Assembly (NCBI GenBank): GCA_030265395.1
Contig: JARFYF010000051.1
Coordinates: 17,744,264 to 17,808,263, forward strand
Length of the DNA: 64,000 bases
Source of the DNA: Rhina ancylostomus
Lineage: Eukaryota
Direction: 5' to 3'
The notes beneath the pieces are model-generated. The model did not search any database. It saw nothing but the letters and a program-made list of their open reading frames with translations, and was not told the DNA's origin. Below, one piece after another: positions 51,901-57,900 of this stretch. A program made the translations under genes and the position numbers. Within the stretch, counting starts at the first letter, position 1, and each line of letters opens with the position of its first letter.

Positions 51901-54900
51901 ATAGGACAATAACTGCCAAACCCATCCCTGGTGTGATGGGAAAAAAAAAATCAGATTAAATCATTCAAAGACAGTGACTCAGCACACAAGACAAGACAGA
52001 TTCTGCAGATGCTGGAATCTGGAGCAATACACAAAACAGAATGCTGGAGGAACTCAAAGTCAGGCAGCATCTATGGAGAGAAATAAACAGTTGACGTTTT
52101 GGGTCGAGACCGGAGTCCTGATAAAGGGTCTCAACCCAAAACATTGACTGTTTCTTTCTCTCCATACATGCTACTAGACCTGCCAAGATCCTCCAGCACT
52201 GTGTGTNNNNNNNNNNNNNNNNNNNNNNNNNNNNNNNNNNNNNNNNNNNNNNNNNNNNNNNNNNNNNNNNNNNNNNNNNNNNNNNNNNNNNNNNNNNNNN
52301 NNNNNNNNNNNNNNNNNNNNNNNNNNNNNNNNNNNNNNNNNNNNNNNNNNNNNNNNNNNNNNNNNNNNNNNNNNNNAGCCAAGCTGGGATACACAATCCC
52401 TACCAGCCAACTTACTAGGTCCTTTGATGACAACCTTCAGCTCTCCAGTGCCAGCTCCTTTGGTGAAGACTTTGAAGTCGGTCACCTCCTTAACTCGCAC
52501 TCCTTTGGGCTGCAGACCTCTCCCCGAGGCTCGACATGCATTAGGATTGCACGCTGGCAGAAACACACGCGATTCAGGTTAATGTCAAGACATCAGATTC
52601 ACAGAAAGCCCAACCACAGCCCACAGTCACATCACTGTTACCACACCTACAGGATTCATGTTACAAGAGGAATCAGAAAACCTGCCAGTTTAGCAAGCGA
52701 ATAACCAGCCGCTTCTGCTGCAAGAATGTACCTCAGACTACAGGCCCTACTCCAATTGAGGGGCTTTCTGGACCCACTCATTGCCCAGAAGAGAGATACG
52801 AGAAATCAACAGGGGTTCCTGCTCCTAATGACTGACCCAGGAGAGAGCAACCTCTCCACATACAGATGACAAACCACCTTCCTGTCCTGGAAAGGAAAGC
52901 CATGTACAATGGCCAAAATGCAGATTACACTAAAATAGCTGGTATAGTGGACAATGAAGACGGCTGTCAAAAATTACAAGAAGATCGANNNNNNNNNNNN
53001 NNNNNNNNNNNNNNNNNNNNNNNNNNNNNNNNNNNNNNNNNNNNNNNNNNNNNNNNNNNNNNNNNNNNNNNNNNNNNNNNNNNNNNNNNNNNNNNNNNNN
53101 NNNNNNNNNNNNNNNNNNNNNNNNNNNNNNNNNNNNNNNNNNNNNNNNNNNNNNNNNNNNNNNNNNNNNNNNNNNNNNNNNNNNNTGCAACTTTTGGCAC
53201 ATTGGCCTTCATCAGTCAGGGCACTTAATATAAGAGTTGGGAGGTTGTGGTGCAGTTGTACAGGATGCTGGTGAGGCTGAACTTGGGAGTATTCAGCTTT
53301 GGTCACCCTGCTCTAGGAAAGATGTTATTAAACTGGAAAGAATACAGAAAAGATTTACAATGATGTTGCCAGGGACTTGAGAAACAGAGTTATAGTGAGA
53401 AGTTGGACAGGGTAGGACTTTATTCCTTGGAGCATATGAGACACAGGCAATCTCAGGTGTATGAATGCACTCAGTCTTTTACCCCCTCAGGGTTGGGAAG
53501 TCAAGAACTAGAGAGCATAGGTTCAAGGTGAGGGAGGAAGAGATTTAATGGGAACTTGAGGGTCAATTTTTTTTAAATTATACACATGAAGGGTAGTATG
53601 CATGTGGAATGAGCTGCCAGAGGAAGTGGTTGTGGCAGGTACATTACAACTTTTTTTTAAAAAGTTGGATAGGTATGTGGCTACAAAGAAGTGTGGAAGT
53701 TTATGGGCCAAACATTGGCAAATGGGACAAGCTTGGATGGGGCATCTTAGTCGAATAGACCAGTTAGGCCAAATGGGCCCATTTCTATGCTGTACAACTA
53801 TGACTAAATTGATCAAGATTTTAATCACATGACCTCATTCCATCTCTATTAACCAAAAAAATTCCATACACTGTAGGAGAAGCAATTCTGGAAAAGGAAT
53901 GCACAGAATTATCCAGTGATCCACAAACCATTCCACTCAAGAACTGCAGGAGCACAGAGCCATTCCAGCAAAACATAGCCAATTTGCCCACCCCAGAACA
54001 ACAGCACTATAGCTAATGACCAAGTTAGTAAAGACCAGGAATAAGAAGCCACTAACCACCCTCCAGTCCACATAAGACTTGCATTGACTCATGGAGCCAA
54101 TGACCATCCCAGGAGGAGTGGGACTGGCCCATTAGCCAGTACCCCCATGCACAGAGAAGGCACGGCCAGCAACCCCTTGTACAGACAGAGGCACAATGTT
54201 CACAGATATAGTCACAAGCACATCTCACATTCCCTCAGACATGTGACCAGCACCTGTCAGACACAAGCATGACCAGTATCTCTTCGTACAGACACAAGCA
54301 CAGGCAGCCACTCAGTTCAGGCCAATACTAACGTGGTCGTTTGGGTTTGGGAGGAGGGGGCGGTGCTTTCTTTGCCTTGTCTGCCGGCGGGGTGCGGATG
54401 GACTGAGGAACGATCATAATTGGAGCTGGTGCAGCAGCCTGGGCCGGAGGGGGGGATCCTGAGGTCAGTCCGGGCACAAATCATGAAGAAGAGAAGATGA
54501 AAGATGTAACATGATGTGAGTGGCAGAGATCCGTGCTGTTTCCTGCAGCTTGGTTGAAAAGTGGGGTTGGGAGAAACAGAGATCCAAGCTCTACAACCTG
54601 CAAACTATGCCCATTCTTACCAGAGTGGACTGAAGATGCTACAGCACCCACTCTCTGCTTCACTGCACCACATTCACAGCCCCAGCTTCCACANNNNNNN
54701 NNNNNNNNNNNNNNNNNNNNNNNNNNNNNNNNNNNNNNNNNNNNNNNNNNNNNNNNNNNNNNNNNNNNNNNNNNNNNNNNNNNNNNNNNNNNNATGCTAC
54801 AGCACCCAATCTCTGCTTCACTGCACCACCTTCACAGCCCCAGCTTCCAAATCACTTTCATAGCCTCAGCCTCCAAATTTCTGCCAGAGCAGACCCAACT

Positions 54901-57900
54901 CTAACCAGCCATGGTCCAACAATCTTATATCTTCACTACTGTCCCATTCTAATCAGCCTTACCCCCAGGGAGAGCACAATCAGTCCCGCTTCATCTCGAC
55001 TTTCTGTACTAACCAGCCTTCCACACGGGCCCAATGTCACCAATTCAACAACTGTGCATTAGGCATTTTCCAAGCTTCAGCACCAGCAATTTCCCCTTAA
55101 AGCTAAGCTGGTGTCCTCTCCAATCAAAGGAGCCCCCTCACCACCTAGTCTTTAGTTAAACAACATGACTCCAAGAAAGCAAGATACACTACTCTGACCA
55201 TGCTGTTGGATTTTATCTTTCTGAAGCCCACAAGAAAGACAATTATCTCACAAAACAAAAGATCTTATTTTACTCAACATGCATGAGTAAATTGATAACA
55301 GGTTCCCAATGAGATGCATCTGTTCACCACTAATTAGTTGGCTGGTCTTGGCAGGCTTCATTTATCCAAGTTAACTGGTCACCTCTTGGAGAATAAAAAA
55401 CACATGCTCCCTCATTCTAATGTTCCCCATGGCCTTAATAGATAAATGTCTAGAAATAAAGCTAGCCTATTGACAAGGAAGCTGGCAGCATCTTCACGTT
55501 TAGCTAAGTCTCCAGCCAGGCACCAAGAACAAACTTCCCCACCCATATCATATTGCCATCAATCAATATTCACATGGCTTGCCTAACTTAGAAAGTTAAA
55601 CACTTTGCAAACTGAATTTGTATTGATAGCAAAGCAAGATTCAAAGCATCTTCAAGAAGTGGTGCCTCAAAAGGGCAACATCCATCATTAAGGACCCTCA
55701 CCATCTGACGCATGCCCTCTTCATGTTACTACCATCAGGGAGGTGGTACAGGAGCCTGAAGACCCACACTCAAGGTTTCAGGGACAGCTTCTTCCCCTCC
55801 ACCATCAGATTTCTGAACAGTCCATGAACACTACCTCATTTGTACCATTTGGTTTTGTAACAGTAATTTTTATGCCTTGCACTGTACTGCTACCATAAAA
55901 CAAATTTCATGATATGTCAGTGATAATAAACTTGATTTTGAGATTCCTCCCCAGAATACTATATGTTAATCATTTGTTTTGATAACAGTGCTGAAGAATC
56001 ATGCAATTACATTCTAACCATAACCCAGAATCGAAACAAAAGCTGATACCATGCTATCAGGTCAGCAATGAACAATTTCAATTAAGTCTGAATTAAGCTC
56101 AAGGGTCATTGCTCAGGAGAGCAAACCCTGCCTATTCCCGGTCAAATAGTAACTTCAGGTTCCATGCTGGAACTCACTCCTGAGAATGCGAAATGTTCCT
56201 CAGCACTGTTTGAAGACCAGAGTTCTCCTCTGTTATTCTGGTTGATAGTCTTACTGCATGAACACCATATGCAGAAAGAAAACATTAAACACATCACTCT
56301 GAGATTATACTGTGCACAATTGGTTACTTGACTCCTGTATTAAAACAGCAACTTCACTGGCTGCAAAACATTTTAGATCACCCCGGGGTTGTAAAGGGGG
56401 CTTCAGAAATGAATATTCTTTTACACATATGCATCCTCAGACAGCTTGTGGGAGCTTTACTGCAGGGACCCACAAGCTCCATTCGAAAGGTTGTTGCATC
56501 CCACCCCCCAAAGAGAAATAATCAATTCACAATTAACTGTTTGCAACATTAACACAGCGATGGAATCCAATGTCACAACTTGCAAAGTGTCAGCCTTCAA
56601 TTCATTGCTTGTTCCCTTCTCTTCCCTCACTGAGCCCAGCCATGCTCCTGCCTTCTACCTTCATAAACCATGTATTTTATCTCCATCATGTCCACGAACC
56701 ACAAACTCCCTCAAGCACTCAATCCCCCCCTTAATTCTGAGCATCACTCTCACCCCTAAACTTCCACATTTCTTGCCTACCTCTTGTTTCCCCACATTCA
56801 CACTCCTTCCCCTTTTCTACAAGTATGATCTCTTCCATACACCCCCAATCTCTTAAACTCCCAACTGGGTCTGTTTCACCCATCACCCTTTGCTTGCTTC
56901 TGTCCTGGGGATGGGGGGGGGGGGGGGGGAAAGAAAAGATTAAGCAATGGGTGAAGGACGAAGGCTCCTTGCACAGAAGAGCCCATGTGCAGTGTGTGTG
57001 GACCTTACCTTCTGAGATGTTGACAGTGAAGGGACTCTTGGGTATTGGGGCTCCAGCAAAAGTCACATGGATGGTGTGAGGACCTTCAAGCAGAGGTTTG
57101 TAAGTGCAGCGGAGAACATTGTCTCCTTTATCCTCCAGAATCACCTCCACTGTATCCCGCCGACCCTGAGGATCAACAATGACGACGCCAACATCCCCTG
57201 ACCCAGCACCTGAGGGCGATAAAGGGCTGTTTTTAGTATACAGACAGTAACTATGCACATGCTGGCAGCAGAGTGGTCAGAACTCATGCTTCAAGTCAAC
57301 ATTAAAAAGTGATGGAATCAGGGCCGGGTTCCAAGACACCTGGTTATTCAACACAACCACTCCCCAGTCCCAAACTTAGTTTTGCAAATAGGATACAAAA
57401 TACAAGAAGATAGATGGCCTGGTGAAACTTTACAAATCTCTGCAGATTAGTTCTCAATTGGAGAACAAGAAGATCAGGATGCAGAGGTGGTTTACTAGGA
57501 GGATAAGGGGCAAGGGACTTCAGTATGTGGAGAGATTAGAGAAGCTGGATTTTTACTACACCAAGAAAAGCTGGTTACAGGGAGACCTAAAGAGTCATTC
57601 AAGAGACTTTGTTCAAGAAAGTAGAAAGGAACTCCTCACGCAAGTTGGTCAGTAAACCAAGCTTATCAACCCAAAATAATGGGCAAATGGACTAGAGGAA
57701 AAGTCATGGGGGCTTTTGGGGTGCAGGAGCACATGGCATTGAAACGTTTTTAGAGACACATTCAAAAGGCAAATGGATGTAAATGTGGAGAACTTCCCTC
57801 CCATTTCACCACGTGTTCCAGTGGGGAACCCCACTTCACCTTGCTACTCACCAGCAGTGTAAATGTCAAAGTACGTTGGCTTGTTGGCCACGTTTCCATT

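Follow-up and report, generated by a model that had tools for sequence, protein, structure and literature searches.

An ancient, alternatively spliced proline-rich exon at the Ig2/Ig3 boundary of filamin C

The DNA analyzed here, called the window, is a stretch of 64,000 nucleotides from Rhina ancylostomus (contig JARFYF010000051.1, positions 17,744,264 to 17,808,263). Its minus strand encodes filamin C (FLNC), as judged by CH domains followed by filamin Ig repeats, the FLNC-specific insert in Ig20 and a hinge-1 exon. The exons are mostly 90-100% identical to those of a ray FLNC, and this includes the exons for the Ig20 insert and hinge 1. Exon 8, which encodes the end of Ig2 and has the donor GTAAGG, lies at 57209-57009, and exon 9, with the start of Ig3, at 52553-52416 (both minus strand). 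Both were placed by exon matches, and a splice joint that skips everything in between ends at 57009 and 52553. The numbering is consistent with six upstream exons in the window and a first exon beyond the window end. The intron between exons 8 and 9 has a length of 4455 nt.

This intron contains a cassette exon of 126 nt and phase 1-1 at 54458-54333 (minus strand), which resembles exon 8a described in the mouse (see below). The initial annotation had proposed an in-frame cassette exon at this place, and its description is borne out by sequence and frame: the splice sites are canonical, with a pyrimidine tract and CAG acceptor at 54505-54459 and a GTTAGT donor at 54332-54327 (minus strand) that is used in a contig of a relative, the phase is symmetric, the length is divisible by three and there is no stop. 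The segment is indeed rich in GC and CpG (GC 0.635 vs 0.45 for the intron; 7 CpG vs about 1.0 expected), and both measures peak here within the intron. The reading frames with and without the exon each contain no stops and differ by 42 codons. The annotated count of 42 added residues is therefore right, while the junction needs correction: inclusion creates a Gly codon before and a Pro codon after 41 exon-internal residues, and the skip form has a single Ala instead. The first Cys of Ig3, which directly follows the insert, is also where the crystal construct 4m9p (Ig3-5) and its alignment to exon 9 begin. PPKPKR (54354-54337, minus strand), a run of five prolines and SP/TP sites are all present in the exon, as had been noted.

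Splice sites, phase and an open frame were dropped as sole proof of an exon, since the same intron holds 111 stop-free, in-frame AG..GT segments of 60-300 nt, with 50 acceptors. The cassette stands above this chance background because of a junction contig from a relative and because of its conservation in predicted proteins, and these two lines of evidence establish it as a real exon at the Ig2/Ig3 boundary.

The splice evidence comes from relatives (organisms A and E) and not from the species of the window. Twelve sequencing runs were listed and seven were compared with the window, X4, X6 and X10-X12 being left out. Run X1 consists of contigs from organism A, probably derived from RNA, and one contig of 186 nt is composed of 30 + 126 + 30 nt without any cover of the intron. 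The two junctions suggested as a check, 57009-54458 and 54333-52553, are both found in this contig. It differs from the cassette of the window at four positions, and its loose ends match exon 9 in 27 of 30 letters and exon 8 in 24 of 28. The divergence of the cassette (4/126) is lower than that of the flanking exons (25/338), but not significantly so (p 0.13). The depth of the cassette contig is 59.9, compared with 67.7 and 83.9 for the contigs of exon 8 and exon 9; these values hint at high inclusion, although contig depth is no quantitative measure. The skip joint 52553-57009 was found in raw RNA runs of organism E, with 49 reads in X7, two in X8 and three in X9. These runs have zero depth on the cassette and no inclusion reads, the presence of the cassette in the genome of organism E not being established, and their reads carry several fixed differences per exon relative to the window. 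Thus, both splice forms exist, inclusion in organism A and skipping in organism E, and the alternative use that had been suspected is seen as well in pairs of predicted isoforms with and without the exon. Where contigs of organisms B and D cover the exon, no difference is listed. A contig of organism C (depth 15.4) has no substitutions in the exon vs 14 in 275 flanking bases (Fisher p 0.007); the same contig is one nucleotide short in the run of seven C at 54449, and this frame-shifting gap may be genuine or a homopolymer error. Intronic repeats at 53195-53846 and 55640-55965 attract thousands of divergent RNA reads from other genome sites, on both strands.

Conservation was read from predicted proteins. 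A search with the 41-residue peptide, which covered only proteins up to 2000 residues, gave a single match, a filamin-C-like fragment of the sevengill shark that has the insert in frame and is 81% identical. From a search with the sevengill boundary region the best 120 of 504 proteins were taken; a lizard query added two, and cluster look-ups added members. Among the matches listed there are 210 proteins, 116 with the full cassette, 72 with the one-residue skip, nine with other inserts and 13 without both flanks. Counted by species, again among the matches listed, predicted FLNC isoforms with the cassette occur in 92 of 116 named species and both forms in 19, a count that leaves out FLNB rows, invertebrates and fragments without the boundary and that describes a search-enriched set and is no frequency. 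The range runs from chimaera, sharks and rays over reedfish, sturgeons, gar, teleosts and lungfish to caecilians, newts, frogs, lizards and snakes. The expectation that the exon would be common to other fishes and already present in predicted fish isoforms has thus been borne out by automatic FLNC predictions of cartilaginous and bony fishes, and the proposed protein search of fish, amphibian and reptile FLNC extends it to amphibians and squamates, wider than had been guessed. The 77 distinct cassettes among the matches listed have a median identity of 56% to that of the window, the best being 93% in two rays. In predicted filamin-C isoforms such as XP_072922819.1, XP_069764511.1, XP_015207866.2 and XP_062839468.1 the same insert is found at the same place, 40-93% identical; those of sharks, rays, bony fishes, amphibians and squamates are automatic predictions without a described function. 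A search with the lizard cassette gave 15 matches, none of them from mammals, birds, turtles or crocodilians, with clustering at 90% that hides isoforms. All six bird proteins spanning the boundary show the skip form, a weak sample of six proteins only.

Other filamins were compared at the same junction. All 18 proteins named filamin-B among the matches listed have one residue there and no cassette. In the window's own genome, a filamin paralogue (C94, L003) has the complete orthologous intron without a cassette; in a third filamin, split over gapped contigs (L004, L005), the best cassette match is an unrelated string (E 0.048). A second own-genome match (L002, E 2.3) was rejected as chance; it does not fall in a coding frame and lies close to the 3' end of a kinase gene, presumably a PIM-like protein kinase whose 3' exons lie at L002 1-760 (minus strand). 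Among 150 distant representatives, nine have both flanks adjacent, eight of these with one residue between them. The amphioxus filamin CAH1264976.1 (P0216) carries an unrelated acidic insert of 84 residues (about 464-547) at the same Ig2/Ig3 boundary, a hint that inserts are tolerated at this junction or attracted to it. Among the proteins searched, none that crosses the boundary could be identified as FLNA or as coming from a jawless fish, and searching the Atlas features with the cassette yielded nothing usable. Cypriniform flnca proteins (P0121, P0194, P0199, P0200) have an optional insert of 18-19 residues at the same site that is basic and proline-rich and has neither PQ..TPP nor, in its 18-residue form, the terminal PKPKR; it is possibly a copy that decayed after the teleost duplication.

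The view that the exon was lost in mammals is not supported. In the part of PMC10770608 available to us, mouse Flnc is described as having an exon 8a of 63 nt between exons 8 and 9 that is in frame and translated in muscle. Its junction peptide VAPPCNPNACR was detected in 5/5 wild-type and 0/5 DM1-model muscles; inclusion is around 10% in wild-type mouse muscle and is lost in the myotonic dystrophy model, and the authors describe the exon as strongly conserved among mammals, primates having a shorter version that is also in frame (PMC10770608, same part). Within the reach of our full-text search, which most subscription journals lie outside, this was the only paper found on mouse exon 8a, and none was found on a long exon in non-mammals or on a link between the long form and exon 8a. 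The other matches concerned something else: exon 8a in PMC13478325 and in bioRxiv 10.1101/2024.10.05.616792 belongs to other genes, 'FLNC' in PMC6105124 is another abbreviation, and PMC12613645 and PMC2777869 have no bearing on the exon. The mouse exon and the cassette agree in intron, frame, alternative use and phase, the latter read from the junction peptide, and in both a junction Pro precedes CNPNACR. They differ in length (63 vs 126 nt) and in their ends, as far as the peptide in this source goes: the mouse exon ends VAP and not PKPKRP, so that PKPKR does not form the 3' end of the mammalian exon. The mouse VAP-P resembles KKVAPP of a frog cassette and KK[VA]PP of others, a comparison of four residues. 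Judging from position, phase and these four residues, we consider it quite likely that mouse exon 8a is a shortened orthologue of the cassette.

Exons that are lost in a DM1 disease model are typically activated by MBNL and have YGCY words downstream. Downstream of the cassette donor (54306-54146, minus strand) we counted eight YGCY words at +27 to +174 and one TGCATG at +182, candidate MBNL and RBFOX sites by the commonly used motif names. Eight YGCY in the first 200 nt are reached by 0.6% of gene windows, and the six in the first 150 nt are equalled at 1 of 38 other donors, in a post hoc test of one of eight motifs counted. MBNL-type splicing factors likely turn on inclusion of the cassette in muscle, a suggestion drawn from motif counts, and exon 8a would share this regulation, the mouse data being from a DM1 model and not from a direct test of MBNL.

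Our main reading, to which we give a probability of roughly 60%, is that an ancient alternative exon adds an unfolded, proline-rich spacer with an SH3-type docking site at the Ig2/Ig3 boundary, and that its inclusion in muscle is likely of the MBNL type. An extended chain spans about 0.31 nm per residue; at full extension, the 42 residues would put as much as about 13 nm between the compact Ig3-5 unit and the part made up of the actin-binding domain and Ig1-2. AlphaFold2 was run on the sevengill protein (P0004) with 53 aligned sequences. It placed residues 270-307 between folded Ig domains, with no secondary structure and pLDDT < 50 (pTM 0.31); the truncated CH2 part also has low pLDDT, which is thus not specific for disorder. 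The segment is therefore predicted to be unfolded, with no fold of its own, and by this prediction it resembles hinges 1 and 2 in lying between two Ig repeats without a fold. This agrees with the linker character that had been proposed, yet the word hinge needs care, since about a third of the residues are proline and the segment may be a semi-rigid spacer.

A purely structural role might be all there is to the exon: an optional third hinge or spacer that binds no specific ligand and changes how far, and at what angle, rod 1 stands from the actin-binding head. The insert lies exactly at a domain boundary, it is predicted to be unfolded, and its length is held at 39-47 residues, with 63 of the 77 distinct cassettes at 41-42. 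Shortened forms are tolerated in cypriniform flnca and in mouse exon 8a, and the unrelated amphioxus insert occupies the same boundary. What speaks against a mere spacer is the distribution of conservation, in that Q, T, K and R at particular positions are kept across jawed vertebrates, unlike the first 12 residues, which drift. The cassettes are 34% proline and contain two near-invariant blocks. PQ[SA][IV]xTPP, in the window PQSIRTPP with its Thr-Pro site (54408-54385, minus strand), has P in 77, Q in 74, T in 73 and the two following P each in 75 of the 77 cassettes. PPPx[PL]PKP[RK][RK] is the core of the second block, [KR][KR]xPPPx[PL]PKP[RK][RK], where P is found in 70, 77 and 73 and then P in 77, K in 74 and P in 72 cassettes; squamates have LPKP[RH]K. 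Two such blocks next to a drifting start are more than a pure spacer would need, and we regard that account as rather unlikely. Splicing to an in-frame AG inside the exon would leave a 93-nt cassette (54333-54425, minus strand) with both blocks intact; no use of this site was seen.

The preferred reading, a spacer that also docks a protein, would assign the second block to binding of an SH3 or similar proline-reading domain. In the window this basic polyproline block (54372-54334, minus strand) includes PPKPKR and contains overlapping class I and class II SH3-ligand patterns, which makes it a candidate ligand. With the general definitions of these patterns, class II (PxxPx[RK]) and class I ([RK]xxPxxP) each fit 69 of the 77 cassettes, keeping in mind that strings rich in proline and lysine fit SH3 patterns easily; eight cassettes have neither. 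The CIN85/CD2AP-type pattern fits 12 of the 77, and PPxY occurs in none of them. SH3 docking and phosphorylation are suggested by motifs and backed by the conservation of these motifs. CAP binds through an SH3 domain. Sorbin-family adaptors would be the first candidate partners because CAP/SORBS1 is listed, in the part of PMC7216277 available to us, as a binder of repeat 2, adjacent to the insert. However, human FLNC does not have the long cassette and binds CAP, and hence CAP does not need the cassette.

The Thr-Pro site could act as a phosphorylation switch in addition to docking. In a second alternative it would be the main point of the exon, with Thr-Pro phosphorylation read by WW-type domains, or with a link that a protease can cut to release the actin-binding head. 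Thr-Pro-Pro after PQ[SA][IV]x is near-invariant, and the accessible part of PMC7216277 describes hinges 1 and 2 as calpain-sensitive and lists ERK1/2 and MKK4/7 as FLNC partners. This would leave the conserved basic polyproline block unexplained, and we hold such a role, taken alone, to be improbable. That the cassette is an unused relic or an annotation artefact in the species of the window, for which one could quote the lack of inclusion reads in X7-X9, splice evidence from relatives and the deletion in the organism C contig, is very hard to reconcile with an intact frame and splice sites, 93% identity to the cassettes of two rays with predicted inclusion isoforms and a junction contig with only four differences.

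An extended version of the docking-spacer reading would be that the SH3-docking linker beside the actin-binding head is a third, so far unrecognized splicing-controlled module in rod 1, FLNC-specific and present since the jawed-vertebrate ancestor, that MBNL switches it on in muscle, that mammals and cypriniform flnca shortened it independently, and that exon 8a, missing in myotonic dystrophy, is what remains of it; we put this forward tentatively, at somewhat less than even odds. The long form appears to be the ancestral version of a barely described FLNC exon and is already contained in automatic annotations. A conserved optional linker next to the actin-binding domain would be a third tuning point in a protein of major importance for myopathy and cardiomyopathy. 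Linking exon 8a with an exon found from chimaera to lizard would turn a 'cryptic' remark from proteogenomics into a conserved module with testable motifs, and the link would flag human FLNC intron 8 as a site where variants could matter. If true, the long fish form would show the origin of the mammalian remnant, with zebrafish or frog as a model.

For human FLNC, the parts of PMC7216277 and PMC7318287 available to us describe 24 Ig repeats, two hinges and two main transcripts whose only difference is hinge 1. Hinge 1 (FLNC exon 31, between Ig15 and Ig16) is, like the cassette, an optional exon that encodes an inter-domain linker, but its sequence of 32 residues is unrelated, not basic and not polyproline. 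The two also differ in use: normal muscle reportedly omits hinge 1, while exon 8a is found in healthy muscle and disappears in the DM1 model. A cassette profile run against the six frames of the window found nothing significant elsewhere (next match E 1.4), and the hinge-1 sequences look unrelated. In the predicted isoforms all eight combinations of cassette, hinge 1 and Ig20 insert occur, and no coupling could be read from them. The Ig20 insertion (about 81-82 residues) is likewise an FLNC-specific insert, absent from FLNA and FLNB, and is named as the docking site for myotilin in the accessible part of PMC7216277. Unlike the cassette it lies inside a rod 2 domain, is highly conserved in mammals and is not proline-rich.

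Three further exons of the window are of interest in their own right. The hinge-1 exon (30774-30679, minus strand) is intact with 32 codons, and it is optional in predicted ray, shark, gar, frog and lizard isoforms. The exon of the Ig20 insert lies at 15706-15446 (minus strand); predicted gar and lizard isoforms skip an insert of 80-82 residues, although it is described as FLNC-defining. Finally, an 8-codon micro-exon that starts with VSIGG (33509-33481, minus strand), with three N at its 3' end and donor, is the difference between the two members of a ray isoform pair.
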